From a virus: DNA of 64,000 nucleotides. Numbering within the stretch: position 1 is the first letter of the stretch; every line of letters begins with the position of its first letter. The notes under the pieces are model-generated. The model saw nothing but the letters and a program-made list of their open reading frames with translations. It did no database searches and had not been told where the DNA came from. Positions 45,108 through 64,000 of the stretch are shown piece after piece. The stretch lies in IMG/VR virus record IMGVR_UViG_3300033148_004740, positions 32,001 through 96,000 of that record, one strand, 5' to 3'. A program made the translations under genes and the position numbers.

Positions 45108-48100
45108 TTACCTCTCGGTCCCCGTTAACCAGGCAGAAAAACTACCTTGTGGTCGGAACCAGTTGTTTGGGTTGATTTTATCATACAGGTGTTCAGCGTA
45201 TAGTGGGCTAGTTGCTCGAGTCCTGCTGCTCCAACGAGCAACACTCTGGGCGAAGGAACCTTTATTGCTTCGCGTCGGAACCCCACCAAGCATTGGTTTT
45301 CCTTGAAGAACCAGGGGACTGAAGCGAAGAGGGTGGGCCAATTGACTACGGGTCAATAGCTTATCTAGGATAAATGTACCAATGAAGTTATGGCGAACGG
45401 CACCAACGATAGCAGTTTTTGCCAGGGTAGTCGCCAGAGCTCCAAAAGAAACGCTTTCAGAAGATTGAGCAAATGAGTTAGCTAAACCTTTAGCTGCGAG
45501 AGGGTTAGGGAGACCAAGACCAGGAACAAACACAGTGTGACCGCCTGTGCTGACGCCGGGCAAAGACCTTAATCCTATCTTGTTCAAAGCATGTTCAGCA
45601 ATTAGGCCCATAGCATCCATGGAAGCCATGGTAGTAACTTCGTTCACATGCACGCACATGCATGGAGTGATTTCCGTAATGAACCCATGCTGTTGCGAGA
45701 ACTTATGGACGACCTGTTCTACCTCAATGGGGCCGAACATATCATTGTACTCATCAAGGACATAGCAGATGTCATAGGGCTTGATACGAGGATTCCCAAT
45801 AATGATGATACTGCCACGATACCCATAGCCCATAGACTCCTTGAGCAGAGACTGGGCATACCGCTTAGCCGCTTCCTCCCCGATGCAGTTAGGATAGGAC
45901 GCAAACATCTCTCTCTTCTCTTCGTCCGGGATAGCGTCATCTACCCTAAGAGTGAAGGTCTCTGCCTCGTCAAGCTTGAGGGACTGTGTCTTTTCATCCG
46001 GTGATGGTTCATCATCTTCATATTGTACGGTACAAATATTGAAGGTGTTCCAGGAGGTAGACTTTATGTCATTGTGGATGATGTGCTGCGTGCTGGTTAG
46101 CACATGGTAGTTACGGAACGGCTTGATGATACCTCTGTCCTTCGACATCTGGAGCAAAGCTCGATTGACGACAACCTCTCGTAGGTCATCGTCTACGGTC
46201 TTAGCCTTTCCGGTAACAATGGCCTTAACTCTCTTACTCAGAGACTGATTAGCCTTGGTAGCATCAGTCACTTCTTCAAGAGCATCTACACTCTTGTCTA
46301 CAAATTTACTAACAGAATCATAAGCTCTGTCTTCTTTTCCTGTAGGCTTACGGGCAAAGTAGAGCTGGTTGGGGAGGCCAAAGAAGAGAGTCATGCGGGC
46401 ACCCCAAACATCATCATAGGGGACGGGGTAGGCGATCCAACCTGGGTGGCGTAGAGTCATCTCTTGGATAACGTCCCAAGCAGTCGCCCGATAGAGTTTG
46501 TATACTGTATTGTCGTACAGGCCATTCAGTCCAGAGTTACCAGTAGGAGCAAAGATGTTGTCGTCGGCAGGTGTAGGAATAATCTCCCACTTATTAGTCA
46601 ACAAGGCACGGGACTTGTCCTTTGGGTCAGCTGGATCCCAACGACCAAAATGCGTTATCTCTGGGGCAGCCATCATCTCTTCTAGAATTGTAGCCGTACT
46701 GGAGTCACCAGCACTGAACCAACCAGCACTAAATTCTTTGACATCTCCATAGACGTTCTGTACTAGCTCGATACCATAGCTCTGACAGGTGATCTCAATA
46801 ATGTCGTCAGAAGGTGAGAAGGAAACATCTGTGATTACTCCATTGAGAACCTTCTCGAGCTCGTCAGGTTGATTGTCGTACCCTAGTCTCAGCTGCATGG
46901 CAATGCCTGGCTGCAACATGAGAGAGGCAATTGGGTTCTCTAGGCCAGTATTAGCTGCGCCTGGTGCGAGACTTTCCTTCGCTAAAGTGTCATCGGCTTT
47001 CCTTGGCTCGGTCTCTCGTCCCTGTCCCTGGAACTTCCGGTTACTAAGGACACCAGAAACATTGGTAAGTCGGATGATAGCAAGATCAGCAGGGAGCTTC
47101 TTGTTTCGGACCACCTCAATATCAACGACTGAGCTATAGCCAAAGAAGTCATCGAACTTATACTTCTTCCGCTCCCCCTCATCTGACTCAATGAAGTAGA
47201 GCTTGAAGGTAGGATAGGCTCTCATAATAGAGTAGCCCTGTGTCTTGATAAGATCCTTCTCTAGCTGCTCGACACTCTTAGTGAACAAAGATTCGTTGGT
47301 GGGATCGAAGCCGACGATTGGGCCAGGAGACTTATGGAACTCACTATCTAGGACCTCGAGGGGAGGAAGGACAGAAGTCTTGTTCGCATTGGCTCGGACT
47401 TCAAAATGAAGATGAGCTCCTGTCGAGTACCCTGTGTTCCCTACTTTACCAAGAGGATCTCCCTTCTTGACATAGACTGGCTCGTTGCTCTCATAGAAAC
47501 GCTTAGACAATGCCTGAATCATTGGTTCGTCTGGCCACTGGAGATGTGTGTAGACAGTGCGGTAGCCTCCTGCATGTATCAGACGAATGGTGACTGCCGT
47601 ATCATGCTGCTTCAGCCGAATCTTTTCACGTAGTTTCAAAGGGTCTCTTCCCTGTGACTCTTTATACTCTCCCCAGGTCTCGTTGTAGGTAAGATACTTG
47701 TCCGGGATTACCTCTATCTTCCCATCTGCTGCGGCAAGGACCGTCAACAGTTTAGAAGTATTCCCAGGCCCACCGTTACGGACGATGTCAATCCCTCTAT
47801 GAGGAGCCGTGGAGATACCACCTCGGACCACACCGAAGTGACTAGATATATGCGTGTTCTCACTCTCAGATGTTGGCCAACCCCATTCAGGGTCTGCATT
47901 AGGATCTAGAGATGGAGGAGGCTTAACATAGGAAGAGGCAGGAAGATGGTCCAAGGTATCCTTGATTCCAAAGCGATGCTGTGCAACCTCTGCCCCGCGT
48001 GCACCTGTCATAGTCTTTTGGGGGCGAGTTTTTATGGTCTCGAGATAGAGATCTGCTCCAAGAGTAATTTTCTTCAGAGCCATCCCTCCTAACGTAGAGA

Positions 48101-51035
48101 GAGCTGACGAGAGGGCCCCTTCCTGATCGGGAGCTACGAGCACAGATTTTTTTCCAGCCTCTGTAGTACGAGAGTCAGCAGCTCGAGATTTGAGCGTGTT
48201 GATGGCTGTTTTTCTAGACTCAGGGAGAGTCTTTGATACTAGCCACTCAGCCCATTTCTTTATTCTAGTAGAAACTCTATCAGCATCACGACTGGGGCCC
48301 CCAGCAACAACATCTTCACGTATCTGTCCTGCGCGATCTGGACCAATAATTGTCCCCTCATAGACCTCTGTTAGCCAATCGTCCTCAGCCTGAAAACGCT
48401 TGTCTCCTTGTACAGTTATGATTGCAGTCTTCGCAGCATTGATTACATCGTTCCCAATCAGTTTGTCTGAGCCCTCTATCTGTGGGTTGTACAAATAGAA
48501 ATCTGGATTGATCAGGCTTGCAATACCAATGTTATACAGCCCAAGGTTCTCTAGCTCATGAGTATCTTCAAGATACTGAGCTACACGATCATAACTGTCA
48601 TCCTGCTGAAGAGCGTTAACCACTTGAGAAAGAGGAAAGTCCGGATAGGCGTTGTTCCCACCGGCAGCTGTTGAAGCAGAGATAAGCTCACGGACACTTT
48701 CGAACTGCTTCAGCTCAATCAGTTCTGAGTTGAGAATGCGATCAGCTAATTCAGAGACCTTCCCAGTAAAGAGATTCATAGCCTCCTGGCCAGGACCGAG
48801 CGAAGCAATATCATGTGTCTCTTTTGTGCGATCTGCTATTAGAGTATTTAGCTGTTCTCTTTCTTCCGAAGAAAGGTCCTCTCCCTTACCAACCTTTTCC
48901 CAGAGGCCGAGAACTAAGCCAACATTCTTTTGTGGAGCTATTACTGGCTCAAAGTTAACAACACCGGCCAGACCAGCAGTTCTGACTGGGGCACTACCAA
49001 ATCCTTTCGGAGGGGGAGTTGGACCAATCTTAACCGCAGCGCGGCGTTCTTGAATAAACGGCAAGAGGTCCTCCGCTAATCTTTTCCCAGCTACTGCATT
49101 TCCATCCACAACATTAATAAGCATAAAGGCCAGATCTGCTATTGACGACTCAGTAATCAAGTTCAAATACTTTAGAACCTCCAACATAGTGAGATGTAGA
49201 TAGAGCCCATATTGTGTAGCCGAATTAGCATAAGCATCTTCGGTTCCGTCCCGGGTCCCTCCATACCTATAGGAAGAAGCAACATCCCTGTTATATAGAT
49301 GGATAGATCCTTCGTCATCTGGGGCCAAATCACCTGCTCCAATTAGAGGGAGACCAGCAAGCCCTAAGACAGGGCCTAAGGCTGCTGCTGCAACAGACCC
49401 AAGACCTGACACTCCTACTCTAGCCTTTCCTACTATTGGAAGTTTATCTGAATCTACACTGAAGCCAGACTTTGAGTTAAAACTAAAAGCATCTGAGACA
49501 AACTCGAGAGATTGACCAAGTACGTCGAGCACAGCATTCCTTAGCTGATAGCTAGAGGTAAACGATGTTCCTGCTACCAGTTTCTCTTGGGTCTCAGGGG
49601 TGACCGGGTTGTCGACCAGAGTGAAGACTGCACTGTAGGTTCCCGGTTTACCAGGAACAGTAGAGGTGCTCATGTCCTCTACAATGAATTCTTTGAGCCC
49701 ACAGAGATTAACGAGCTCGTTACGGAGACGTATGTTCCTCATACCAGCGGGGACCTGGCGCATCTTCCTTCCCTGGCTCTCTACCATGTTGTACCAGGTA
49801 GCAAGAGCTGCAATCCCGTCCTCATGAGGAGTCAGGATAGAAAGAGAGACGATACCATCTGTGCTTCCAATGTGTTGAAAGGTTGGATAACAGTGTCCGG
49901 TCATAGGAATGGTAGCAAGTGTATTCTCGAAACTGATTGAAATTCCTGTGATAATTAGACCCATGTCATCAAAGGCAAATACTTCCTCCTTCTGCATGAG
50001 TAACTTTGACTCTGCTCCTGTTCCTTCTCCCTTTGCTGCCTCCTCTAATGTGATATCTAGCCTGTCATGCCATTCAATGATTGAACCACGCTTATCTGTT
50101 GTGACGTTCCAATCTGTTCCCTCTCCTACTAGGACACCCATAGAGGCAAGCTCTTTCTCCTTGCTTGCGATCTTTCCTCTGAGAACGCTCTTCACGTCTT
50201 CAAGACGAGGGGCTTCTTCAGGGAGATCGATAAAGGAGGAAGTATTCCAGACCTCTCTTACTGGGGCTATGTTCATGTCCAGTTGTTCTTTAACCTGGAC
50301 GATGAGAGCACCGGGCATTCCAGCAAATTCACTTGTTCCAATCGCTGGAGTGAACTGTGTATACTTCACTATCTCGCTGTCCATCTCTTTGAGGGCAGCT
50401 ATGTCGCTCCTTAGAGCATTGAACATCTTCTTAGCGACTAGCATGTACTGGCTGACAAACATCTCTGTACCAGGAGTAGAGAGGTGACCCACTTCAGCGT
50501 CTCCAGGATAGGGACCGCGCATCTGCTCAGCCTTATAGAGGAGCCTCCAAGCCTTAGAATGCTTAGGGTTCCGGACGCCCTTGGGAATGAAGATGTCCTC
50601 ACGGAAGATGAAGTCGTTAGAATAAGGGAAGTAATTGAACCAGGAAAACATTAGATTCAGTGTGAGAACATTAGTATCTGAACCAGCAGCATCAACTATC
50701 TCGAGCTGCTTGAGTGCAAGAACCATGGCTTGGTCATTCTTATCGTTGGCGAGACCTAGGACACTCTTACGGATGAAAGCATTCTCAACCCAGCAGAAGG
50801 GAGTGACGCGAATCTGGGAGACAAGGTCACGTAGCTTCTTTAGCTCATCACCTTGATCAACTATCTGAATTGTGACAGCAATATCAATCTGTGAGTATTC
50901 AGAGCTCAGCTTGATAGACGAACGGGTACGCAGAGTCGACCAGTAGTTGTTACTGGAGTTCCTCATGACCCTGATGTTCTCTGGAGGAACTACAAAGTCA
51001 ATGTCGTTGATTTGGAAACTGCCGGTATCGGTCAT
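45108..51035 (-). CDS. Baseplate hub / tail-tip fusion protein with M23 metallopeptidase (1975 aa)
   Basis: M23 zinc motifs HRGID (~47787-47801), YTHL and GNTGYSTGAHLHFEV (~47400-47445); hub-like motifs LRLGYD, TAWDVIQEM and GNPRIKPYD...VEQVVHKF. Confidence 0.75.
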   Translation of the reverse strand: MTDTGSFQINDIDFVVPPENIRVMRNSSNNYWSTLRTRSSIKLSSEYSQIDIAVTIQIVDQGDELKKLRDLVSQIRVTPFCWVENAFIRKSVLGLANDKNDQAMVLALKQLEIVDAAGSDTNVLTLNLMFSWFNYFPYSNDFIFREDIFIPKGVRNPKHSKAWRLLYKAEQMRGPYPGDAEVGHLSTPGTEMFVSQYMLVAKKMFNALRSDIAALKEMDSEIVKYTQFTPAIGTSEFAGMPGALIVQVKEQLDMNIAPVREVWNTSSFIDLPEEAPRLEDVKSVLRGKIASKEKELASMGVLVGEGTDWNVTTDKRGSIIEWHDRLDITLEEAAKGEGTGAESKLLMQKEEVFAFDDMGLIITGISISFENTLATIPMTGHCYPTFQHIGSTDGIVSLSILTPHEDGIAALATWYNMVESQGRKMRQVPAGMRNIRLRNELVNLCGLKEFIVEDMSTSTVPGKPGTYSAVFTLVDNPVTPETQEKLVAGTSFTSSYQLRNAVLDVLGQSLEFVSDAFSFNSKSGFSVDSDKLPIVGKARVGVSGLGSVAAAALGPVLGLAGLPLIGAGDLAPDDEGSIHLYNRDVASSYRYGGTRDGTEDAYANSATQYGLYLHLTMLEVLKYLNLITESSIADLAFMLINVVDGNAVAGKRLAEDLLPFIQERRAAVKIGPTPPPKGFGSAPVRTAGLAGVVNFEPVIAPQKNVGLVLGLWEKVGKGEDLSSEEREQLNTLIADRTKETHDIASLGPGQEAMNLFTGKVSELADRILNSELIELKQFESVRELISASTAAGGNNAYPDFPLSQVVNALQQDDSYDRVAQYLEDTHELENLGLYNIGIASLINPDFYLYNPQIEGSDKLIGNDVINAAKTAIITVQGDKRFQAEDDWLTEVYEGTIIGPDRAGQIREDVVAGGPSRDADRVSTRIKKWAEWLVSKTLPESRKTAINTLKSRAADSRTTEAGKKSVLVAPDQEGALSSALSTLGGMALKKITLGADLYLETIKTRPQKTMTGARGAEVAQHRFGIKDTLDHLPASSYVKPPPSLDPNADPEWGWPTSESENTHISSHFGVVRGGISTAPHRGIDIVRNGGPGNTSKLLTVLAAADGKIEVIPDKYLTYNETWGEYKESQGRDPLKLREKIRLKQHDTAVTIRLIHAGGYRTVYTHLQWPDEPMIQALSKRFYESNEPVYVKKGDPLGKVGNTGYSTGAHLHFEVRANANKTSVLPPLEVLDSEFHKSPGPIVGFDPTNESLFTKSVEQLEKDLIKTQGYSIMRAYPTFKLYFIESDEGERKKYKFDDFFGYSSVVDIEVVRNKKLPADLAIIRLTNVSGVLSNRKFQGQGRETEPRKADDTLAKESLAPGAANTGLENPIASLMLQPGIAMQLRLGYDNQPDELEKVLNGVITDVSFSPSDDIIEITCQSYGIELVQNVYGDVKEFSAGWFSAGDSSTATILEEMMAAPEITHFGRWDPADPKDKSRALLTNKWEIIPTPADDNIFAPTGNSGLNGLYDNTVYKLYRATAWDVIQEMTLRHPGWIAYPVPYDDVWGARMTLFFGLPNQLYFARKPTGKEDRAYDSVSKFVDKSVDALEEVTDATKANQSLSKRVKAIVTGKAKTVDDDLREVVVNRALLQMSKDRGIIKPFRNYHVLTSTQHIIHNDIKSTSWNTFNICTVQYEDDEPSPDEKTQSLKLDEAETFTLRVDDAIPDEEKREMFASYPNCIGEEAAKRYAQSLLKESMGYGYRGSIIIIGNPRIKPYDICYVLDEYNDMFGPIEVEQVVHKFSQQHGFITEITPCMCVHVNEVTTMASMDAMGLIAEHALNKIGLRSLPGVSTGGHTVFVPGLGLPNPLAAKGLANSFAQSSESVSFGALATTLAKTAIVGAVRHNFIGTFILDKLLTRSQLAHPLRFSPLVLQGKPMLGGVPTRSNKGSFAQSVARWSSRTRATSPLYAEHLYDKINPNNWFRPQGSFSAWLTGTER

Positions 51036-51041
51036 GCGCTC

Positions 51042-54000
51042 CTACCCGAATATCTTGTCAGCCATAGTGTATGGATTGTTGCTAGACCTACTGTCCCTGA
51101 CGTTTAGATTAACAGAACTTCCACCACCCGTCATCCCCGATATAGAGGAGGCCAGGCTAGATGGAGTCACCATGAAGTTGGATCGAGCTCGAACATGTGC
51201 TCGTGTACGAGGAGGACCAGCCAAATGTACAGCATTCTGATGCATCATACCAGGGGCAGAAGGAGAACCCATCTGGGCAGAGACCTGCATATCGTCTTGC
51301 TTCATGCGACCAGCTCCCTTTCCTCTATTCAGACTCACTCGTGTCTGCATCCCTCGTCCTGAGCCTACAGTCTCATTAGGAGAAGAGAGAGCAAGGGACA
51401 GAGCGATAGCACCAGCAAGGCCATAGCCAATAGGCTTATGGTGACGGATCATCCCGCGCCCTGCCTTGCCTAGCAAGTTCTCTATCGTCCCTCGAGCCCC
51501 AACAGCTTCTCCCATTGCGTGACCACCAGAGAAGCTCACAGTCTGTAGGAACTGCTTAATCGCACCAGGCTGGAACAATCGTCCACCAGTGCCACTGATC
51601 AGCTGAGCCTTAGCGAGCTCTCCAGATTTTTCAAACTTGTGTAGTGACGACATGAGTCCCTTAGCGGTTCCCTCTACGTCAATGCCACTTAGTTTGTTTC
51701 CAAGACTAAAGCCCAAAGCCTTCTCTGCGTCACGAGCTCCAGAGATAGCCAGGTCCTGACTCAATAGCTTTTGGCCAGCGGTCCCCGGCTTAACAATCTC
51801 GTTGATCTCTCCGATTAGAGAGGTGGCATCCCGCTGAGTAAATGAGCGACGGATAGCTTCCATCTGTGCTTCAAAGGAAAGGGTCTTCTCTCCAGCAATA
51901 TGTTTACCAGAGATAGGTGTCTGTTCTAACCACTCGAGCAGGAACTGAGCATCAGCTAATTTCTTCCCTTTCATATGCTGGAGGGAAGCTCTGCGGGCTG
52001 TAGTCAATTCAGTGGAGAGGAAGGGGACCTCGCGTTGAGTAATCCCCAGCTTTGCGATATCTCCATATACGTTCTTCTCTATTTGTGCCAAGGTCATAGC
52101 CCCTGCGCTCTTCTTAGCCTTAACTAGCTGTAGCCTCATCTGATGCTGAGCATAGGCAACCTGGTATTCGTTACCAGCCATTTGGTTAAAGTGGGCCAGC
52201 TGTTTAGCTGACTTAGGGCTAACCAAGAATGCAGACAAGGCATCAGCGTCTTTATCAGCTGCCATACCTAACATAGGAGAAAGATTCATCTGGTGGACCT
52301 CTCCACCGATGTTCATGCGGACCTTCTTCTCTGCTACAGCAATACTGTCCTCGAGAGTATCTACTGCCTCAAACATTACAGGCTGTAGAGAGAAGGCCCC
52401 AATAAGTGGGTCACGAGCCACCATTCCCTGTACCTTTCCTGTGCTCTTGAACTGCTCGAACATCTCGGTAAGCTCTGAGCCATACATGCCAGTGCGTCTC
52501 ATCTCACCAAACATATTCTCGATGTGGCTCTTCGATATGCCAACAGTGTTTAGGTCAGTGGGAGTATAGTTCCCTATCTGGGAAACTGCTTTGAGGCGTC
52601 GAGAGCCAGTGACCTTTCCTCTTAGAAAGCCACCAAGGCCTTTACCAGCAGGGGCTGCTTGGCCTGCAAGCTCAGCCATTGCTTTCTTCATATAAGAGTC
52701 CATGGCCCCTGCGCCTAGATCACCAGAAGCAAAGGCTCCACCTCTCTCTGCTATACGGTGATAGACGTCAGGGAGGTAACCGGCAATCTTCCCGGTAGGT
52801 GTAGCATGCGGCTGCATAGCTGGGGTATTGACACCTGGGACAAAGACATCTGGGCGTCCCTCTCCCATCTTCATCCACCCTCCACCGCGTTCAATGAAGT
52901 TCTGGAAATCACCTCGAGAATATGGATGCTTAGAAACGTCCCAGTCAGCAGTACCAGGCATACTAATCTGGCCCTGCATAGAAGAAAGACTCTTAGTGAT
53001 ATCTTCAAAAGCAGACACTTTCTCAGGAGAGGTAATAGCAACTCGGCGAGCGAGATCATCTGCTAGTTCACTTGCAAACGGAGTGTCTCTATACGGAGCT
53101 CCTTCAAGGATATCAAACACACGAGGTTCAATATTTCCCAGGCCTCCTACGCCCTCGTGAGGTCCACCCCACGTAAGCTGAGCCCCACCAACAGCAATGC
53201 CACGGAACATTTCGCGGAAAGTCTGCGTACTGGTAACACCTGCACTGGAGGCCATTTGGTATGCTGCCTTAGCTCCAAACACTTTGGGAACAGCACCAAA
53301 GATTCGACCGAACTCCTCTCCAGTAACATTCCCGTGTCTGACAGCAAATCCCATGGCCCTCTCAACAAAAGCTTGTTGAGACTTCTGTGTACGATCCCAA
53401 GTGTGAGCAAACGACAGGGGCTTACGCATGAAGCGCTCTCCCCATGGGCCGAGATCCTTATCTAACATAGTCTGGTACATACCAGTCATGATCTGTTTGT
53501 TCAGCTTGGCCGGATCTTTTACAAGGTCATCGAAGGATGCGAGTACATCTACTGGAGCTCGCATTCCGAATCCACGGCCAGTAGAGAAACGCATCAGGTC
53601 GTCTTCAGTAAATCTAGCGAGAGCCTTTAGGTCACCAAACCACTTCTCTTGCTGACCAAGGCGACGACGATTCATCTGCCACAGTGTGACAAAGTCTCCC
53701 TTATTAACGTCTTTGAAATTCTCGATGCCCATGATGGCACCCTCTGCAGCTGAAGGGGCGGTGACCAATGCTCCAGTCTTTGCGCTCCTTCCAAGAACAG
53801 TACCTGGAGCAACAGTCTCTCCTGCACGAATTGCGTTCATTACGTCTCTGTCTACAGCAGTAAGATGAGTAGAAGTAGCATACTCTTGTTGCATGATACC
53901 TTTAACGCGAGAGCTCATAAGAGCTTCACCCTCATTAACCCCTAGTCTCTCTAACTCGCCAGCATACTTCTCTGGATCGACATAGGCTGTTGTAAGGTAA

Positions 54001-55343
54001 GGGGCAGAGGCATAAGCTTCCCGAGCTGCTGTGTCAAAGGCTCCTAGCTCAGCGACGGAGGCTGCTCGAGCTTGAGCTTCTCCTGTGTATCCCCACGCAC
54101 GAACTGCCTGTTGTGGCGACCTTCCCATTGCTGTGCGACGTGGCGTTGGGTACAAATCAGCGATGTCGAATGTTTGTGCCCGGCCCTTTGATACACCAGT
54201 TGCACCCACTCCACCAAACAGTTTCCTCTCTTCCATAATCGACATGTACTCAGCAGTCCTAGGATCTCTAGTAGAAGCTTTCCAATTGAATGGTCCCGTC
54301 TGATCAACTGCCTCTGTCGCTATTCTGATATCAACTTGCTGGCCACGAAAATCTCTGTAGCCTTGCATCCATGATGGTTCTAATCCTTCTGGCATATTGG
54401 GCAGTGTCTCTAGTTCACGGAAGATAGAAGTGCTCATCGATTTGATGGCAACATCGAGCTCACCTTGAGAACGAATGCGACCTTCTTTGAGAGCAGGCAT
54501 AATAGTTGTTTCAAATTCTCTCAGGAAATACTCATGGCGAGCCATCGACTTGTACTTGAAACCGCCTCCGTCTTGAGGCGTAGCAAGAAGAATATCAGGA
54601 GAGATATAACGAGTCTGGAGAGACTGGCCCATGAGCATGGTCCCATCACGGGTAATAGGAAGATTGAACCCTACCTCGAGCCCTCCTGCTGCTTGCCAAT
54701 GAAAACGATAGGCTTCTCCAGGAAGGCCTGGGCGTGTGATCTGTTGAGCGAGCCCCCCTGTTGCTCCAAGACCTTTTGTAATATCATTGAAATAACTAGA
54801 GACTCCGGGAATCATATCCACAGGGTTAATGGTCGAGGGCTTGAGCCTCAATTCGCGAACAGAGGAGATGTCTGGAAGGTTTCCTAGCTTGGACTGCTGC
54901 CAGCTGAGGACATCTACGTTCTCTCTGAAACGCGCGGTCACCCTCTGCATCAGGTTAGACTGGTTACGACCTACCGTCTCTCTAATAGCCGTATATACGT
55001 CCTGAGGATTCTTATAGGTTCCTAGCTTTGAGGTAAAGGACAGGAGCTTCTGCTTGGACATAGGATCTGCCGCTGCCATAGCTTGTTCCCATGCCTGTTG
55101 GGCTACCCGTGCCCCTTCCTTCTCTAGGAAGAACTTCTCCTTACCTCCCATATAGCGTAGGAAGTCAGCAACAGAAGCCTCCCCTTTAGCAGCAGAGCCT
55201 GTTCTCATAGCTCCTAGAAGAGAAGAGGTAGTACCTACTTCTGTGGTACCTGCACGGGATTGCCTTACAGCAGCCGCTACACCCGCTACAACAGGAGCAC
55301 CTATGATGGCAGACTCTAGTAGACCTGGGCCGTCATTAGCCAT
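51042..55343 (-). CDS. Single-chain two-barrel (beta/beta-prime-like) RNA polymerase-like protein, candidate virion RNAP (1433 aa)
   Basis: Ordered motifs GVNEGEALMSSRV (468), AGETVAPGTVLGR, EKWFGDLKA (K567, K573), PVDVLAS (597), FLRGKVTGS (908), NTVGISKS, ARDPLI (R977), AADKDAD (D1030/1032/1034), EQTPISGKH (Q1141-H1148). Confidence 0.75.
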   Translation of the reverse strand: MANDGPGLLESAIIGAPVVAGVAAAVRQSRAGTTEVGTTSSLLGAMRTGSAAKGEASVADFLRYMGGKEKFFLEKEGARVAQQAWEQAMAAADPMSKQKLLSFTSKLGTYKNPQDVYTAIRETVGRNQSNLMQRVTARFRENVDVLSWQQSKLGNLPDISSVRELRLKPSTINPVDMIPGVSSYFNDITKGLGATGGLAQQITRPGLPGEAYRFHWQAAGGLEVGFNLPITRDGTMLMGQSLQTRYISPDILLATPQDGGGFKYKSMARHEYFLREFETTIMPALKEGRIRSQGELDVAIKSMSTSIFRELETLPNMPEGLEPSWMQGYRDFRGQQVDIRIATEAVDQTGPFNWKASTRDPRTAEYMSIMEERKLFGGVGATGVSKGRAQTFDIADLYPTPRRTAMGRSPQQAVRAWGYTGEAQARAASVAELGAFDTAAREAYASAPYLTTAYVDPEKYAGELERLGVNEGEALMSSRVKGIMQQEYATSTHLTAVDRDVMNAIRAGETVAPGTVLGRSAKTGALVTAPSAAEGAIMGIENFKDVNKGDFVTLWQMNRRRLGQQEKWFGDLKALARFTEDDLMRFSTGRGFGMRAPVDVLASFDDLVKDPAKLNKQIMTGMYQTMLDKDLGPWGERFMRKPLSFAHTWDRTQKSQQAFVERAMGFAVRHGNVTGEEFGRIFGAVPKVFGAKAAYQMASSAGVTSTQTFREMFRGIAVGGAQLTWGGPHEGVGGLGNIEPRVFDILEGAPYRDTPFASELADDLARRVAITSPEKVSAFEDITKSLSSMQGQISMPGTADWDVSKHPYSRGDFQNFIERGGGWMKMGEGRPDVFVPGVNTPAMQPHATPTGKIAGYLPDVYHRIAERGGAFASGDLGAGAMDSYMKKAMAELAGQAAPAGKGLGGFLRGKVTGSRRLKAVSQIGNYTPTDLNTVGISKSHIENMFGEMRRTGMYGSELTEMFEQFKSTGKVQGMVARDPLIGAFSLQPVMFEAVDTLEDSIAVAEKKVRMNIGGEVHQMNLSPMLGMAADKDADALSAFLVSPKSAKQLAHFNQMAGNEYQVAYAQHQMRLQLVKAKKSAGAMTLAQIEKNVYGDIAKLGITQREVPFLSTELTTARRASLQHMKGKKLADAQFLLEWLEQTPISGKHIAGEKTLSFEAQMEAIRRSFTQRDATSLIGEINEIVKPGTAGQKLLSQDLAISGARDAEKALGFSLGNKLSGIDVEGTAKGLMSSLHKFEKSGELAKAQLISGTGGRLFQPGAIKQFLQTVSFSGGHAMGEAVGARGTIENLLGKAGRGMIRHHKPIGYGLAGAIALSLALSSPNETVGSGRGMQTRVSLNRGKGAGRMKQDDMQVSAQMGSPSAPGMMHQNAVHLAGPPRTRAHVRARSNFMVTPSSLASSISGMTGGGSSVNLNVRDSRSSNNPYTMADKIFG

Positions 55344-58300
55344 TAGAACCAGTCCCTCCTAGCTAAGCTATTGTAGTTAGGTTGTTCGTATACCTGCATT
55401 TGAACGGAATCTGTACCAGCAGGATCGAAGACTGTTCTCGTAAACACGTCTCCCTCCATCCGGTTTGTCATTAGTAACCCACTGATTCTATCATGGATTT
55501 CCCCTCGAGACAGAGTTCCCTCTCCTACAATAGGTTCAATTGCCTGATTATTAATGTAAGGCTTGTTAGCCATAGCCTGTGCTCGGCCTGGCCAGAGGTC
55601 ATACTCGTGCATATCCTCTCCCCAGTTCTGAATAACCTTTAGCTTTACGTCATCAAGGTCCACAGAAGGGTGCCACCCTACCCAGTCTGGGCCAGGAAGG
55701 GTAGATAATTGGGTCAGCAAATGGGTCTTGCGATACCAATCGCCATAGTTTTCTCCAGGTGAACGACTCTGCAGGTATGCCGAGTTCAGATCTTTGCTTG
55801 TCGGGAAGCCTTCAGTAGCAGCTTCATCGTAAATCTTGTCGATGAGCACGTCTGCTTCAGCTAATTCAGAGCCACTGAGCAGTTCATCCTTCTTCGCGCG
55901 ACGTACTTCGTCCGCAAACATGACCTTCCACTGTGCAACATACAGTGCTTTTTCGTTTCGAGGGACCATCTCAAGGATCTTGGCACGTTCAGCTTCGGTT
56001 TCTGCACCTGCAAACGCGTTGAAGTAGTCTCGATCACGTCTCGGTAGAGCTCGGAAGATGGCACTGAAGTTTCTCGTGTACGGATTCAGACCAAATAGGG
56101 TCTGGTCCTTCTGACTTTCGAACTCTCGGAGTGCTGCAGAGTCCTGATTCTCTCGAGCAATGTTAGATAGACGAGAGTATTTCACATATTTTAGGACATC
56201 AAAGTAGTCTTCGAGCTCACGACGACGTGCAATGTGACTGGGAACTCCTTCATATCCAACAGCTTGTGCCCCTAACCAGAACGATGGGCGCATGAAGTCA
56301 CGGAAAGGATGGTTCCAGAATGCATTCTCGGTTCCATAAAGCTGAGTTCTTTCATAGTGCTCAATAGCAGTACGCTGGTGAACCAGCTTAGCACCAGGAG
56401 AGATAGGTGTCATCTGGTCCAATGCAGTCTCGGCATTGTGAGACAAGGCCTCCCAGTAGCCACCGAAGTACTTTGCAAATAGGCCACTTTCTCCATCCTT
56501 GTCAGCCTTGAGTCTATTTATAGCCCCTATGATATTGGAAGAATCTTCCCCATCGTAATAAACCTTATCTCCAAAGAGCCCACCAGTAGAGGTAAGGTGC
56601 TTATATTCCTGGAACTCTACCCTAGTCTTCTTCTGCTGCAGCTGGTCCTGGGTCTGTTGGAATACCATCTCCTGACTCTCAGTCCAGCTCTCCTCCTTAC
56701 GGGCCCTATTCACCATCCTAAGATGGTCTTTATAGTTCTCTGTATAGGGAGCAACATCAGCTAGTATCTTATACTTGTGAATTAGTGGGTAGTCCTCTGG
56801 GGAAACACCTTCGAGCTCTGGGTAACGGGCCTCATAACCTCGTCCTGGGAGCCGTAGCTCGCCCTCAGGGATCTTTATATAGGGGTCACCATGTAGGAAG
56901 TCTGGAGACTTCGACCCGGGGCCTGGGAGCCATCCTGGCATCATGTTTGGAATCGGGTTGTACAGGGGGATCTGGCGACGTCTATGGGGGTACAAACGAC
57001 GGAAGGCTTCTGTAGTACCCATGAGTCCACCAAGCTCGAGGTCCCAGTAACTACGCTCAAAACCAAACATACGACGGGCACTCTCAAGCCTCTGTGTTTG
57101 GTCAAACCAGTCTGGGGTACCAGTCATCTGCTCTTTCATACTCATCATAGTAAAGCCTGGAAGACCTATCATCTCCTGTAGGCGATAGATCTGTTCACCG
57201 ACTATACCTGTTGTGTCATATGGAGTAGTGGGGACACCTCCGGGTGTCTCCCCAATCTCTGTAGCAATCCTCTGTCCGAACCTAGGAGGCTCAACTAGAG
57301 CTCCTTCTGAAGAGAGCCAGTCATCTTCGTGCATGATACGCTCAGGTTTGATAGCTCTGCCAACAGTCGCAGCAAGCAATGGTCCGACAAAGGGGACATC
57401 TTCAAGTGGCAAAGCGGAAACAGGGTATGGGCGCTCCTCATAATGTTTCTCTTCTAGGGCATAGGTGAACTCAGACTGGAACCAACGCTGGATCGGAGAC
57501 AGAGCTTCTGCGTCATCGCCCCAGATACCTTCGTTCTTTGCATCCATCCTCATGCGTGCGTACCAGTGAGGACGGAAGTAGGCAATGCGTTGTCCCTCAA
57601 AAGCTGATCGACCAAACTCCCACCAACGACCACGGCGAACAGGGACTTCCTGTGCTCCAGAGTAGATGGCTTCGAGTTCTTCAGGACTCTTCTCTGGAAT
57701 CAGAGAGCCTGGAAGGAAAGGTACGATTGATAGTGCGCCGGCAAGACCGCCGATGATACCTGCCAGCTTGACTGGACCAACCTTTCTGAACAGCTTGAAG
57801 GAGAGCTCACCTGTTCCTTCGGCAACTGGCTTCGCAATTCGACGCCAGAGATCTCCCATCTTCCCAGGGCGAGCATAGATACCAGACTCTTGAGTAAGAG
57901 AGCGACCCCACTGAGCAAGGCGAGTTTGTTTTCCATACTCAGATGCCCACTCTTCAGCTGCGGCTCGAGCTTGTACTGCAGTGGCTCCCCGGGTTTGTTC
58001 CCGAGCCATGTACCCAACCTTGAGACCATAGGCTGCGCCGGTACCGAACATGGCTCCCATCAATGGGAAGGCCATTAGTCGAGAGAAGTCTGTGCTACCA
58101 GGGGCAAGATCCTCTTGCCAATTCCTGTAGTCCTGTAGTCCAGTAGCCTGAGCAACTCGAGATGCTAGCAGGTTAGCTCTGGTGATAGCTGTGCCGGCAG
58201 CAACTGAAGTTCCCTCTTCGAGAATGGTCCCTTGAGTTAGAGCGCTCCCACTGGTCATCCAGTCCAGTGTCTGGTAACCCATGTAGGCGAGAGGAAGATA

Positions 58301-59245
58301 GAGACCATACTTTTTGAGCAGGCCTCCCATCATTCTGCCACCAGTAGATTCTGGTACTGCTAGTGTTGGCCTGATTCCTTTACCAAAGATCTTCTCAGTA
58401 GCCTTCTCAACAAAGCTTTGCCCTTTGGAGAAAGCAGTATCGAATGGAGGCATCTGTGCAGGGAGACGAAGGAGAGTATTAAAACGGGAAACCATAGCGG
58501 TTCCCCAGGCGCTTGCATGTCTCCAGGCTGCCTGTCCTCTAGTGTGTCCACCTACTACTGTTGTGGGCATACCTCCTACGAGAGGAGGCTTGAATTCTGG
58601 GAACCCTTTAAGAGGTTGCACCTTACCGTAGAAGACTTCTGGATTATCGACTGGGGCTCCAACTACACGCGCCCACGAAGAAGTTAGCTTAGCGCTAGCA
58701 TCTGGAGCAGTTCTGATCCCAGAAGCAAAAGGCAGTGCGACTTCGTCACTCTGTCCCCAGAAGAGCTTCGAGTCTCTGAATGCTAGACCCTCAGAGAGGA
58801 CACGGCGGTAGGTAGTCCCAACACCAGGGTAGTTGCGCTTACCTATTAGTGAAGTGTAGTACTCGGCAAGCTGTTTTGTCCCTGTTCCCTCGGCCGCAAA
58901 CAACGATGGTGGCAGCTGGAAACCAGCTCGGGTTGATGTCTCAAACTGTGAGAGAAAAGGACCAGCAGAAAATGTACGAAAGATATGAGCAGGAGAGTAC
59001 TCCTCGAGGACACGAGCTCCTCGAGCATACAGGTCCCAGACACGACCACCTTTCCAAGGAGCATACCCAAGAGCTACTACTCCTGCAACAGCTCCAGCCT
59101 TACCGAGCATGCCAGTTGCTGGATAGTCTTTCCTATAGAAATCTTCTTGCTGGTCGGCTGTCCACATAGGTGGAGATCGACGAGGATCTTGCAAAGAAGA
59201 CCCATAATAAGGGCGACCATAACCTGGAGTATAATTATCTGGCAC
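55343..59245 (-). CDS. Tape-measure / DNA-ejection-like protein (1300 aa)
   Basis: Directly follows the tail chaperones; several Gly/Ala-rich hydrophobic segments; no enzyme motif recognised. Confidence 0.5.
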   Translation of the reverse strand: MPDNYTPGYGRPYYGSSLQDPRRSPPMWTADQQEDFYRKDYPATGMLGKAGAVAGVVALGYAPWKGGRVWDLYARGARVLEEYSPAHIFRTFSAGPFLSQFETSTRAGFQLPPSLFAAEGTGTKQLAEYYTSLIGKRNYPGVGTTYRRVLSEGLAFRDSKLFWGQSDEVALPFASGIRTAPDASAKLTSSWARVVGAPVDNPEVFYGKVQPLKGFPEFKPPLVGGMPTTVVGGHTRGQAAWRHASAWGTAMVSRFNTLLRLPAQMPPFDTAFSKGQSFVEKATEKIFGKGIRPTLAVPESTGGRMMGGLLKKYGLYLPLAYMGYQTLDWMTSGSALTQGTILEEGTSVAAGTAITRANLLASRVAQATGLQDYRNWQEDLAPGSTDFSRLMAFPLMGAMFGTGAAYGLKVGYMAREQTRGATAVQARAAAEEWASEYGKQTRLAQWGRSLTQESGIYARPGKMGDLWRRIAKPVAEGTGELSFKLFRKVGPVKLAGIIGGLAGALSIVPFLPGSLIPEKSPEELEAIYSGAQEVPVRRGRWWEFGRSAFEGQRIAYFRPHWYARMRMDAKNEGIWGDDAEALSPIQRWFQSEFTYALEEKHYEERPYPVSALPLEDVPFVGPLLAATVGRAIKPERIMHEDDWLSSEGALVEPPRFGQRIATEIGETPGGVPTTPYDTTGIVGEQIYRLQEMIGLPGFTMMSMKEQMTGTPDWFDQTQRLESARRMFGFERSYWDLELGGLMGTTEAFRRLYPHRRRQIPLYNPIPNMMPGWLPGPGSKSPDFLHGDPYIKIPEGELRLPGRGYEARYPELEGVSPEDYPLIHKYKILADVAPYTENYKDHLRMVNRARKEESWTESQEMVFQQTQDQLQQKKTRVEFQEYKHLTSTGGLFGDKVYYDGEDSSNIIGAINRLKADKDGESGLFAKYFGGYWEALSHNAETALDQMTPISPGAKLVHQRTAIEHYERTQLYGTENAFWNHPFRDFMRPSFWLGAQAVGYEGVPSHIARRRELEDYFDVLKYVKYSRLSNIARENQDSAALREFESQKDQTLFGLNPYTRNFSAIFRALPRRDRDYFNAFAGAETEAERAKILEMVPRNEKALYVAQWKVMFADEVRRAKKDELLSGSELAEADVLIDKIYDEAATEGFPTSKDLNSAYLQSRSPGENYGDWYRKTHLLTQLSTLPGPDWVGWHPSVDLDDVKLKVIQNWGEDMHEYDLWPGRAQAMANKPYINNQAIEPIVGEGTLSRGEIHDRISGLLMTNRMEGDVFTRTVFDPAGTDSVQMQVYEQPNYNSLARRDWF

Positions 59246-60641: not shown

Positions 60642-61445
60642 TTATAGCAAATCCCTTGCGATAAAGGAATAGGCCTCCTGGATTGGGAGGCCATCAATAG
60701 CCACTTGTTTTGATTGACCAAGAATATAAACGTCTTCTAGCTTCTGGACAGTGTGGTGGATATTATCATCCCCCACATAGTCTCCAAAAGCGACATAGAT
60801 GTCAAAAGGATTCAACGCTGGATCGTCAACATGTCGACCCATCCCTGTGTCAACAGTAATGGATCCTATATTTTCCTTCTTTGGTGCGCCCCAGACTCTG
60901 TTCTCGAACATCTCAAAAGCATTCTCTGCTCTACCTACTTTCCCAGCGGCACGTTGAGAGCTAGAGAAGCCCGTTAAAGAAGCATGGGCAGCTAGCTCTT
61001 GTAGCTGATCGACAGGGAGCCCGAGATTACCATTAATGACTTTTTCAATATTTGCCGTAACTGTCTCTTCTCCAATATACTTTCCCTTGTCTGATTTCAC
61101 AGCAGAGAAGGGAGTAAACTCGCCCTTTACTAGAGCCTTATAGCGTTGTAGGACAAGCCACAAATAGCCAGCCTCTTTGAAGTTGATAGTGAACTGGCCC
61201 TGTACAATTACGTTCCCCTCCGCCACGGCGTCAAATAGACGAGAGGCATATCCATAGAGAGGAGTACGAGACTGAGTGACAGCATAAGACATACTAGTGA
61301 CCTCATCTATAAGTACATCGCCAATATAGATAGCCACCTGTGCGCCCGAGAAGTAATCATTGTTGTAGATACCCCTTCGGTCTAAGGTAGCCCCATGAGT
61401 ATCCCAAAAGGATTTCTCTGATTCGCCCTGAGGATCAATAGCCAT
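60642..61445 (-). CDS. Tail tube-fold protein (paralog 3)
   Basis: YFSGAQVAIY, SRTPLYGY, VQGQFTINF, PFDIYV and EAYSFIARD match the tube motifs of 62706..63398. Confidence 0.7.
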   Translation of the reverse strand: MAIDPQGESEKSFWDTHGATLDRRGIYNNDYFSGAQVAIYIGDVLIDEVTSMSYAVTQSRTPLYGYASRLFDAVAEGNVIVQGQFTINFKEAGYLWLVLQRYKALVKGEFTPFSAVKSDKGKYIGEETVTANIEKVINGNLGLPVDQLQELAAHASLTGFSSSQRAAGKVGRAENAFEMFENRVWGAPKKENIGSITVDTGMGRHVDDPALNPFDIYVAFGDYVGDDNIHHTVQKLEDVYILGQSKQVAIDGLPIQEAYSFIARDLL

Positions 61446-62650
61446 TAGAGCCTTCTCCCTGAGCGCCTAAGCCCCATACTCTCCAGGTATCTAACATATC
61501 TTCTTCCACCTGCTACAAGAAGCTCGGACGCAGTCCTTTCTCTTCCTTTACTCCAAATACCTCTATCATTCTGAGAGAGCTTCATTCTGCCTACAGAGGT
61601 CATGATGTCTACATCTCGAGCGACAAAGTTAATCACCTGTTCTGTCAGTAGATCTTCTACGGACATAGTAACTCCATCATTCATGAACTCAACACCATAG
61701 ATCCCCATACGGGAAATGGAACCATATTCATTAGCGAAGAGAACGGTAAGATCCATTGGAGGAAGTTGATCAGGAATGAGAGTTGAGACTTCAGTATCTG
61801 CTCCCATTTCTCCTGCAGTCCTGGCGTCTCCCATCGCACGAATCAAGGGAGCAAGGGCATGCTCATTGAAGAGAGTGAAGATCATCGAACCACCAATAGT
61901 CCTAGGTCCACGGGTATATCCCTTTACATAGCCTTGGCCCAGAGCCCTTACCCCCATCTTCTCACGGTGGCTCTGGACACTGATAGTCTGTAGGGTAGCC
62001 AAAGTAAGAGTATTGGTAGCTGCATCATCCATCTCTTTGATGTGATCAATGCGGCGCTGTAGGCCATCCTTGATGAACTGATGTTCTGCCTTCATAGCAA
62101 AGGCTACACGAATCATTCTCTCGTACCCAGCTGCAGAAAAGCCGTGTCTGTTGAATATTCCGAGGACGATAGGAACAGCAAGATCCTTAGCTGGACTGTC
62201 TGTCCCGTCTGCGGCACCTCTTATATATAGACCAGCAACTGTGAGAAAGTGTCGCTTGAGATCCTCATAGCTAGAACGGATGACGGCGTCAACATCCAGC
62301 GGATTCATGTTGTTGATGATATTCTCACAAGCAGCTACAACCTCTACTGAGGTATCGACCTCTTCCTTGAGAGCCGCGATCTGTACGTCCTTGTCCACTC
62401 TGCCGTACAAATGGGCCACAACCTTGATGTCGCTTCCAGAAAAGCTACTACCAACCCACTTGATCTCACTATGTTTGTCTTGTTCGACAGGAAGATTATC
62501 CTTTTCTCTATGATATTCCTGTCGGATTAAGGCAGGGAAAGAGTCTTCTTGAAGGAGGACTTCACCGGGTTGGAACTGTTGCGCCTCGACGGCAGCAAGA
62601 TCAGGAGGGCCAGAGTCTGATTTAACATTGATTGGTCGATCGCCTGGCAT
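61445..62650 (-). CDS. Tail tube-fold protein with ~130-aa insertion (paralog 2)
   Basis: FSGSDIK, REK, GPRTIGGSMIF and DQLPPMDLT...ANEYG...GVEF motifs. Confidence 0.75.
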   Translation of the reverse strand: MPGDRPINVKSDSGPPDLAAVEAQQFQPGEVLLQEDSFPALIRQEYHREKDNLPVEQDKHSEIKWVGSSFSGSDIKVVAHLYGRVDKDVQIAALKEEVDTSVEVVAACENIINNMNPLDVDAVIRSSYEDLKRHFLTVAGLYIRGAADGTDSPAKDLAVPIVLGIFNRHGFSAAGYERMIRVAFAMKAEHQFIKDGLQRRIDHIKEMDDAATNTLTLATLQTISVQSHREKMGVRALGQGYVKGYTRGPRTIGGSMIFTLFNEHALAPLIRAMGDARTAGEMGADTEVSTLIPDQLPPMDLTVLFANEYGSISRMGIYGVEFMNDGVTMSVEDLLTEQVINFVARDVDIMTSVGRMKLSQNDRGIWSKGRERTASELLVAGGRRYVRYLESMGLRRSGRRL

Positions 62651-62663
62651 CAGAACTCCTTGT

Positions 62664-62693
62664 GAGAAGCACCGGGATTAACCGATGCTCCTC
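62664..62693 (-). promoter_or_regulatory. Intergenic RNA stem-loop (12-bp stem, 6-nt loop)
   Basis: Minus strand GAGGAGCATCGG-TTAATC-CCGGTGCTTCTC, with 10 Watson-Crick and 2 G-U pairs; no U-tract. Confidence 0.55.
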
Positions 62694-62705
62694 TGTATCT
62701 TAGAA

Positions 62706-63398
62706 TTATGTATATAGTTGACTAGTTAGACCAGGAAGCTCAACCTTCTGCCAAGGTACGAGTGTCCTAGCGATATAAGTGTTCTGCATCTCAGACGTAA
62801 TGTCGTCAATCGAAACACCATATCCCTCATTGAGTAGCTCAACACCGAAGATCCTCATGACAGCAAAGCTGCCGTACTCGTTAGCCGCTGCTAGTGTGAT
62901 ATCAAACGGAGGAATTTGATCTGAGAACCATGGAGCCATGGCAACCTGATCAGATCCAACATTAGTGATATCCGACTCGATATTAAAATCTGGATCGTCA
63001 AAGTCTACTGCCACATTAGGGTCAGAGACTTGAGCAATCGGTAGAGTCGTCACCGAAGCGTCATTGGTATTCTGAGGAATGAAGTCATCCTTATCGGCCA
63101 AAAACTTCGGAGCAGTTCCTGCACCATGTTTTCGATCAGCGATCATTCCAAAGAGACCAAGTAGAGCATGTTCATCGAACATGAGGAAAATTAGGGTACC
63201 AGCAATGCCACGTTTACCGCGCGAGAAGGATCTAGGATCCGCTGATCCCATAGTATACAGAGGGGCTTTCTCTCTCGTAACCGAGTACGAGATAGCCTGA
63301 ATCTCTGCAATAACCTTGCTCCCGAAAACAGCCTTAATGTCTACGCCGGAAAAACTGTGGTAGCTCTTTCCAAATTGATTATCTGCTGTGTTGGCCAT
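62706..63398 (-). CDS. Major tail tube protein (probable)
   Basis: Follows the sheath; FSGVDIK, REKAPLYTMG, RGIAGTLIF and DQIPPFDITLAAANEYG motifs. Confidence 0.75.
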   Translation of the reverse strand: MANTADNQFGKSYHSFSGVDIKAVFGSKVIAEIQAISYSVTREKAPLYTMGSADPRSFSRGKRGIAGTLIFLMFDEHALLGLFGMIADRKHGAGTAPKFLADKDDFIPQNTNDASVTTLPIAQVSDPNVAVDFDDPDFNIESDITNVGSDQVAMAPWFSDQIPPFDITLAAANEYGSFAVMRIFGVELLNEGYGVSIDDITSEMQNTYIARTLVPWQKVELPGLTSQLYT

Positions 63399-63408
63399 TT
63401 ACTTCTCC

Positions 63409-64000
63409 TTATACCGCCGCCAAAGCTACGGAGACAGTGATTCTACGTAGTTCGAAGGCTGGTACTAGTTTTAGTTCAACTGTGGCTTGTCCTAGTACCC
63501 TCTGTTGTGGTGTGATAATGAGCTGGAACTCAAAGCGACGTATTACCCCATTCTTAACAAGGTTCTGCAATACACGCTCAAGAGCCGTCTCGAGAGCTGC
63601 AGTTTGAGCTCCCGTCATTGCTTCGCCTAGGAATGGTTCTCCTACGTCGCGAATCGCGTCCATCGAAGCCTTGACCTGACGCATGGTTGACAGACGCTGA
63701 TAATCAGAATCTGGACGTGCTGCTGTTGGACCATCGCTGACTACGATTCCACGCTTCTTAGCATGGAAGGTAACAAAGCGATAGCCTGCAAGCGTGTCAA
63801 TCTTAGCTAGATTAAGACGGAATGGCAGTCTAACACTGTTCAACAGTTTGTTTGTAGGCGCACTGTTAACAGCTAGTGCAGAGTAGAACCCTGCATAAGT
63901 GGCAGCACCAGACGCAACGTAGGCTGACGTTCTGCTTGAGTTAGCCAGAACAGGCCATGTCGCCACGACACTGAGATACTTACCAATATCGACCAGGTGA
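63409..64000 (-). CDS. Tail sheath protein, C-terminal part (open to window edge)
   Basis: Frame open to the window edge; C-terminal RQVKASMDAIR...FLGE...VELKLVPAFELRRITVSV is typical of contractile sheath C-termini. Confidence 0.85.
   Translation of the reverse strand, partial: HLVDIGKYLSVVATWPVLANSSRTSAYVASGAATYAGFYSALAVNSAPTNKLLNSVRLPFRLNLAKIDTLAGYRFVTFHAKKRGIVVSDGPTAARPDSDYQRLSTMRQVKASMDAIRDVGEPFLGEAMTGAQTAALETALERVLQNLVKNGVIRRFEFQLIITPQQRVLGQATVELKLVPAFELRRITVSVALAAV

Follow-up and report, generated by a model that had tools for sequence, protein, structure and literature searches.

Why would a contractile-tail gene module carry, in the slot of a tape-measure gene, a protein with the motifs of a multisubunit RNA polymerase (RNAP)? 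The question is raised by a 64,000-nucleotide stretch of viral DNA (the window; bases 32001-96000 of the 126,472-bp linear IMG/VR record IMGVR_UViG_3300033148_004740), whose minus strand holds an open reading frame (ORF) of 1433 amino acids (aa) at 51042-55343. A first-pass annotation of the bare sequence had proposed that this ORF encodes a single-chain two-barrel RNAP injected from the virion. Virion RNA polymerases let a phage begin transcription without the host enzyme, and to our knowledge few kinds have been described: those of N4, crAss-like gp66, phiKZ/AR9 and P23-45 gp96. Our models and alignments indicate that the gene product very probably has an RNAP fold with an intact active site. 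The reading we favour as a whole, and consider reasonably probable, is a single-chain two-barrel DNA-dependent RNAP that would be packaged, expelled through the tail and engaged in transcribing the first phage genes; virion packaging and injection, taken by themselves, we regard as a little better than an even prospect. We found no description of this polymerase family in the literature.

Predicted fold and active site

We modelled the protein with AlphaFold2, once over residues 201-1390 (52 relatives in the alignment) and once over a core of residues 856-1260. The longer model describes a compact alpha/beta protein, not a ruler, with a predicted local distance difference test score (pLDDT) of 84.1 and a predicted template modelling score of 0.82; the core model reaches pLDDT 90.8. 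In a Foldseek search of the PDB, the best 50 matches listed for the longer model were all beta or beta' type RNAP subunits, of cellular, poxviral and jumbo-phage origin (E from 1.2e-4, probability ~1). The best 50 listed for the core were likewise RNA polymerase chains, nearly all beta'. Structure prediction and fold search thus bear out the annotation, with both halves matching RNAP large subunits in the order it gave, beta-like then beta'-like.

Structural alignment with VIA placed residues 201-734 (model residues 1-534), a segment that includes the lysines K567 and K573, on beta/Rpb2 with Z scores of 12-13 over 410-430 residues at a root-mean-square deviation (rmsd) of 6-6.6. Beta pieces of AR9 and phiKZ aligned at Z 12.4-12.8 and rmsd 4.7-4.9 (AR9 7s01_C, Z 12.8, rmsd 4.7). 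We then have, independent of Foldseek, a VIA search of the core against 48,161 PDB chains, in which the ten best matches were largest subunits of archaeal, Pol I-IV, vaccinia, African swine fever virus, AR9 and mycobacterial polymerases. Nine low-rmsd largest-subunit matches covered 155-262 residues at rmsd 3.2-5.2, and AR9 7s00_d gave a looser fit (Z 9.8, rmsd 9.5). Core model residues 39-394 (protein residues 895-1250) align with Rpb1 338-1423 through the barrel, bridge helix and trigger loop. The next matches were generic double-psi beta-barrels (DPBBs), namely CDC48-N, VAT-N and a designed DPBB (Z 7.7-9.5), followed by QDE-1 (8.4), phiKZ (8.3), P23-45 gp96 (8.0-8.2), P74-26 gp62 (7.8) and RDR2 (7.7). 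Double-psi barrels, on which the proposal depended, are therefore predicted, one of them being recognised on its own.

The secondary structure of the second half is also beta'-like. A 39-residue helix occupies the place of the bridge helix, and E1140...K1147-H1148 occupy the tip joining the two helices that come after it, which is where EQTPISGKH should fall if, as had been suggested, it is the trigger loop. The annotation calls for one refinement: the predicted fold seems closer to the multisubunit beta/beta' type than to gp62, gp96 or QDE-1, by a small difference in Z (9.6-11.5 for the nine largest subunits versus 7.8-8.4).

Conservation was counted over 112 full-length relatives, 20-60% identical, aligned with MAFFT. 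Eight residues are the same in 112/112 members: D1030, D1032, D1034, P979, R741, P836, E1140 and K1147. The motifs that had been picked by eye are all present in the ORF product (Table 1), and they turn out to be the most conserved positions of the family. Eight residues are invariant in all two-barrel polymerases: Rpb1 R446, P448, D481, D483 and D485, and Rpb2 D837, K979 and K987 (Ruprich-Robert and Thuriaux, PMC2919709). Seven of them have counterparts that are 95-100% conserved in the relatives; for the eighth, Rpb2 D837, the candidate counterpart is E471, placed by sequence only. R977-x-P979 (compare Rpb1 R446/P448) closes a strand 51 residues ahead of the Asp triad, which usually reads GDKDAD in the family and takes the canonical form DFDGD in one member. 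Near-total conservation of the Asp triad, RxP, the lysines and K-H down to 20% identity points to selection on catalysis.

By itself the signature [RK]xP...DxDxD is weak, since it is present in 3.4% of shuffles of the 1433-aa protein. A chance DxDxD motif in a ruler protein is ruled out by the family-wide invariance together with the compact fold.

The tape-measure slot in relatives

The ORF begins at an ATG that overlaps the stop codon (TAATG) of the 1300-aa gene before it and is preceded by AGGAGG, and the hub gene starts 6 nt past the stop of the ORF; the candidate is probably translated with the tail proteins. A word-index protein search found one relative only. It took an exhaustive HMMER search, run over 1.84 billion representatives, to recover the family: 174 clusters at 50% identity, of which 129 fall below 1e-30. 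Lengths are mostly 1430-1560 aa, with none above 1851 aa among the best 150.

Through one conserved peptide we located thirteen IMG/VR loci. Twelve of the thirteen share one gene order (sheath or tube genes, partner, polymerase candidate, hub, baseplate), in agreement with the original placement between tape-measure-like and hub genes. The partner gene is always directly upstream of the candidate. The thirteenth locus has the partner and tblastn homology to the candidate, without an intact ORF for it. Across the 12 intact loci the candidate measures 1416-1548 aa, the hub ~1970 aa and the partner 1266-2123 aa. The candidate diverges faster than its neighbours, at 25-36% identity. One relative, G001, is a complete genome of 188,653 bp with terminal repeats. 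There the orthologue is the sole protein above 600 aa with [RK]xP...DxDxD; the genome holds no paralogue, no Rpb1-domain match and no second recognisable polymerase. A sigma-70 search gave no match in the window's own 66%-complete genome, the one genome it covered.

The protein resembles a tape measure in its place before the hub, its hydrophobic segments and its conserved C-terminal end. It departs from a ruler whose length follows tail length: the fold is compact, and candidate length is constant, with a variable partner. The 1300-aa partner, aromatic-rich with one hydrophobic segment (494-512), may itself act as the ruler or be ejected along with the candidate. Outside the core of the 1433-aa protein lie only ~200 and ~140 residues. 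The hydrophobic termini described earlier are found at residues 8-26 and 1301-1322 and recur in relatives. At the same hydropathy threshold, the 1301-1322 segment scores in relatives P0010 and P0061 and not in P0001.

Distant homologues of partner and hub occur in the Bacillus phages 0305phi8-36, WH1, Edson and KLEB27-3 as well as in Acinetobacter phage ME3 and Moorella phage MTATph1; we read the annotated regions of ME3, 0305phi8-36, WH1, KLEB27-3 and MTATph1. One giant gene stands directly between partner and hub in ME3, 0305phi8-36, WH1 and KLEB27-3. In ME3 this is gp036 (YP_009595868.1, 1603 aa, 'hypothetical protein'), between the partner homologue gp035 and the hub gp037, and it carries SREPAQGxxSSQ...GGDHDQD and KFFSVGSK. 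Two ME3 models in BFVD, together 1603 residues long, correspond to both halves of our model (E 8.6e-8 and 8.8e-6), their identity as gp036 being deduced from length. The top-ranking BFVD entry (E 4e-12) is a C-terminal half whose parent protein, again judged by length, would be WH1 gp095. WH1 gp095 and KLEB27-3 gp034 (~2500 aa) carry NRYPTIN...KADxDGD near residue 1950. The ME3 protein shares the slot with the candidate but escapes detection by tblastn and, at significant levels, by hhalign, which alone or with a 6-sequence profile gave only 3-6% probability; the barrel-B motifs did align.

For 0305phi8-36, record notes list gp145 and gp146 as virion proteins by mass spectrometry. Here gp146, named 'hypothetical tape measure protein', shares the slot and the C-terminal end with the candidate: its last 60-90 residues are common to the family (hhalign E 1.8e-4; hmmsearch 4e-7), and Hardies et al. 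noted that conservation of gp146 is confined to its last 60 residues (PMC2147016). This phage has a separate YonO-like polymerase (PMC2147016, PMC7824862). MTATph1 has a 1309-aa slot gene without DxDxD, followed by a transposase gene (L023:9539-11026) and other genes before the hub, and the module there may accordingly be disrupted.

Alternative roles and a proposed mechanism

An active two-barrel RNAP that stays out of the virion, merely sits in the tail operon and acts in the cell, for example on late genes, is the alternative that survives best, and we consider it unlikely. It draws on the same fold and active-site evidence, and a compact fold would be hard to fit in a tail. Against this stand a strictly kept tape-measure slot with translational coupling in 12/13 loci, the hydrophobic ends and a C-terminal tail in common with the virion protein gp146. 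Late-only synthesis would also come too late for a sole phage polymerase. If synthesis is confined to the late phase, the enzyme must travel in the particle to be of use for early transcription, and we therefore favour a virion enzyme. Carriage in the virion for early transcription is the logic of N4, crAss-like gp66 and P23-45 gp96 (PMC10770324).

Rather improbable, in our view, is a two-barrel enzyme of another activity delivered with the genome, such as a DNA-pulling motor, a PolD-type primase or DNA polymerase, or a QDE-1-type RNA-dependent polymerase. The two-barrel fold is common to PolD and QDE-1 (PMC10770324, PMC7281927), and the matches include QDE-1 and RDR2 at Z 7.7-8.4. The top-scoring matches, which are also the longest, are however to DNA-dependent beta/beta' subunits and take in the bridge helix and trigger loop, and the phage already encodes Pol III alpha and DnaG-DnaB of its own.

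Highly improbable is a protein serving only as a structural tape measure or in ejection, its polymerase-like fold kept in inactive form: slot, hydrophobic ends, weak language-model likeness to tape-measure and minor tail proteins (scores <0.9) and gp146 in the same slot without DxDxD would suit it, but in relatives down to 20% identity the Asp triad never varies and RxP, the two lysines and the trigger-loop K-H hardly do, and the constant length and compact fold are unlike a ruler.

Several points weigh against the favoured reading of a packaged, tail-delivered RNAP. No sequence method ties the 1433-aa protein to any RNAP, and the case rests on predicted structure and motifs. Pfam and PHROGs gave no match for this protein or for the 1300-aa partner; PDB sequences, searched with phmmer and with the family profile, gave chance matches only (an efflux pump and calmodulin); tblastn against 50,697 phage records with P0001 and the distant member P0130 gave none; and ESM Atlas gave scores of <=0.84, a weak likeness to tape measure and minor tail proteins only. 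The acidic residue on the beta side, E471, is E or D in only 80% of members, and K567 and K573 are spaced by 6 residues versus 8 in beta/Rpb2. The sole slot protein with mass-spectrometry evidence, the 2537-aa gp146, is without DxDxD. A compact ~1100-residue enzyme has no obvious fit in the lumen of the tail tube. The intergenic regions of this genome and of the complete relative G001 yielded no repeated promoter-like motif when searched for 10-mers, and the source record is ~66% complete by CheckV.

We infer packaging, passage through the tail, template and timing as follows. The enzyme would join a beta-like half (residues ~201-734, with K567 and K573) to a beta'-like half (residues ~905-1170, with RxP, DxDxD, bridge helix and trigger loop), with a hydrophobic segment near each end and a conserved C-terminal tail after. 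Encoded in the tape-measure slot, it would be synthesized late, alongside the tail proteins and its coupled 1300-aa partner, and be incorporated into the virion. On infection it would be expelled through the contracted tail, with the hydrophobic ends and the partner possibly aiding membrane crossing or anchoring, and would transcribe the first phage genes entering the cell independently of the host polymerase.

An extended version seems to us evenly balanced. On this account, a whole lineage of large contractile-tailed phages would keep a beta-beta' fused RNAP in the tape-measure slot. It would extend from uncultured 100-190-kb phages to ME3 and also to WH1 and KLEB27-3, where the polymerase would have become fused to a ruler. 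The enzyme would be tail-fired, the sole phage polymerase and perhaps able to pull the genome in, and it would represent an independent, multisubunit-like one-chain lineage without a sequence link to known families.

Known polymerases and remaining features of the locus

The citation of P23-45 gp96 as a tape-measure-fused virion RNA polymerase was sound (PDB 8H2M/8H2N; PMC10770324). Like gp96, the candidate is a predicted single-chain two-barrel polymerase in the tape-measure position with DxDxD and RxP, the structural match extends over 175-188 residues, and the proposed role is the same, injection to transcribe first genes. The candidate differs from gp96 in several respects. Neither sequence nor profile comparison reveals similarity between them (hhalign of the family with gp96 residues 1-1200, probability 0.1%). 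At 5002 aa, gp96 carries a long ruler behind its polymerase part and serves a non-contractile tail, whereas the candidate stands alone, unfused, in a contractile-tail module with a separate giant partner and seems structurally nearer to beta/beta'.

Multisubunit beta/beta' subunits, be they bacterial, archaeal, eukaryotic or poxviral or from the non-virion enzymes of jumbo phages AR9 and phiKZ, provide the best structural matches for both halves. The candidate has their motif order, with a bridge-helix-like and a trigger-loop-like element, and a hybrid motif of flap type is probable. In contrast to these enzymes, the candidate packs ~1100 core residues into one chain rather than ~2500 into two subunits, has no detected Pfam domain, and reads DKDAD at the catalytic motif, with the shorter lysine spacing. 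We know of no alpha, omega or sigma partner for it. The crAss-like phi14:2 gp66, a virion-packaged capsid cargo protein of a podovirus, shares with QDE-1 and YonO-type enzymes the single-chain two-barrel plan. Those enzymes form an RNA-dependent RNA polymerase-like clade, to which the candidate's matches are weaker than to beta/beta'; gp66 is absent from the structural matches listed.

If the favoured reading is true, these genes form a large unannotated family of virion RNA polymerases (the 174 clusters) delivered by a contractile tail, and a minimal one-chain enzyme near the cellular beta/beta' core would bear on polymerase evolution and on use as a compact polymerase. It would also raise the question of how a folded ~130 kDa enzyme is stored in and passes through a tail. 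The cultured phages ME3, WH1 and KLEB27-3 carry relatives labelled hypothetical or structural, which makes the idea directly testable, and ME3 gp036 offers a practical test system.

Table 1 Features of the candidate gene and its neighbours. Positions are those of the window; percentages are conservation among the 112 aligned members; 'quoted' marks motifs named in the first-pass annotation.
Feature	Residues	Position	Strand	Remarks
Whole gene, single-chain two-barrel RNA polymerase candidate		51042-55343	-	1433 aa; tape-measure slot
N-terminal hydrophobic segment	8-26	55266-55322	-	Ala/Gly-rich; in 6/6 family members examined
Beta/Rpb2-like module	201-734	53142-54743	-	includes second barrel, DPBB-B; Z 12-13 vs beta/Rpb2
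GVNEGEALMSSRV	468-480			quoted
GxxEGEAL motif		53904-53942	-	G472 99%; E471 candidate counterpart of beta acidic residue
AGETVAPGTVLGR	507-519			quoted
PGxVLG motif		53787-53825	-	G518 invariant; may resemble hybrid motif of beta flap insert
EKWFGDLKA	566-574			quoted
K567 and K573, catalytic-type lysines		53622-53648	-	on adjacent strands (predicted model, alignment); K567 96%, K573 95%
PVDVLAS	597-603			quoted
E739-P740-R741, connector		53115-53132	-	near-invariant (alignment); E739 98%
Beta'-like barrel DPBB-A	905-1045	52209-52631	-	RGxxxGSR, VGI...MF, R977-x-P979...S985, Asp triad; R977 98%, S985 96%
FLRGKVTGS	906-914			quoted
NTVGISKSHIENMF	932-945			quoted
ARDPLIGAFSLQ	976-987			quoted
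AADKDAD	1028-1034			quoted
Asp triad D1030-K-D1032-A-D1034		52242-52256	-	112/112; loop between short helix and strand, as beta' NADFDGD
Bridge-helix-like long helix	1085-1123	51975-52091	-	Rpb1/A' alignments run through helix
Trigger-loop-like helix-tip-helix	1126-1169	51837-51968	-	E1140, Q1141, K1147, H1148 at tip; H1148 93%
EQTPISGKH	1140-1148			quoted
C-terminal hydrophobic segment	1301-1322	51378-51443	-	KPxGxG...LSxP consensus conserved
Low-complexity C-terminal tail		51045-51311	-	ends NxNxRDxRSS; low-confidence model; common to 0305phi8-36 gp146, WH1 gp095
Baseplate hub		45108-51035	-	1975 aa, with M23 peptidase; downstream
Partner gene		55343-59245	-	1300 aa; directly upstream, translationally coupled; homologue of ME3 gp035 and 0305phi8-36 gp145
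Three tube-like paralogues		60642-63398	-	230, 401, 267 aa; after sheath
Tail sheath gene, end only		63409-63966	-	first in minus-strand module order

Between the tube paralogues and the partner in the module order, two small genes take the position of the 0305phi8-36 tail chaperones, and baseplate wedge genes follow the hub as the last of the minus-strand series. The three tube-like paralogues match a PHROG labelled 'major head protein', a label that looks wrong because their 0305phi8-36 homologues are the tail tube and its paralogues.

Other BFVD entries also matched the polymerase model. A0A172Q0S6 from ME3 (798 aa; E 9.5e-7, 786 columns) is possibly a second, non-virion two-barrel polymerase of that phage. 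The uncharacterised A0A075BUT7_2 of Microcystis phage MaMV-DC matched at E 1.1e-4 and A0A8S5SD80_1 ('Minor tail protein', Siphoviridae sp.) at E 4.1e-9; by these model matches, tail-linked polymerases may exist in other phage groups too.

Elsewhere, two adjacent giant ORFs of 1419 and 2407 aa (window 272-4531 and L002:5037-12260, both on the minus strand) have no Pfam match and no DxDxD. Finally, a DNA polymerase III alpha gene (L001:5693-9502, plus strand) is split by an intein with a LAGLIDADG domain, recognised by a Pfam Intein_splicing match below the cut-off together with LAGLIDADG_3.

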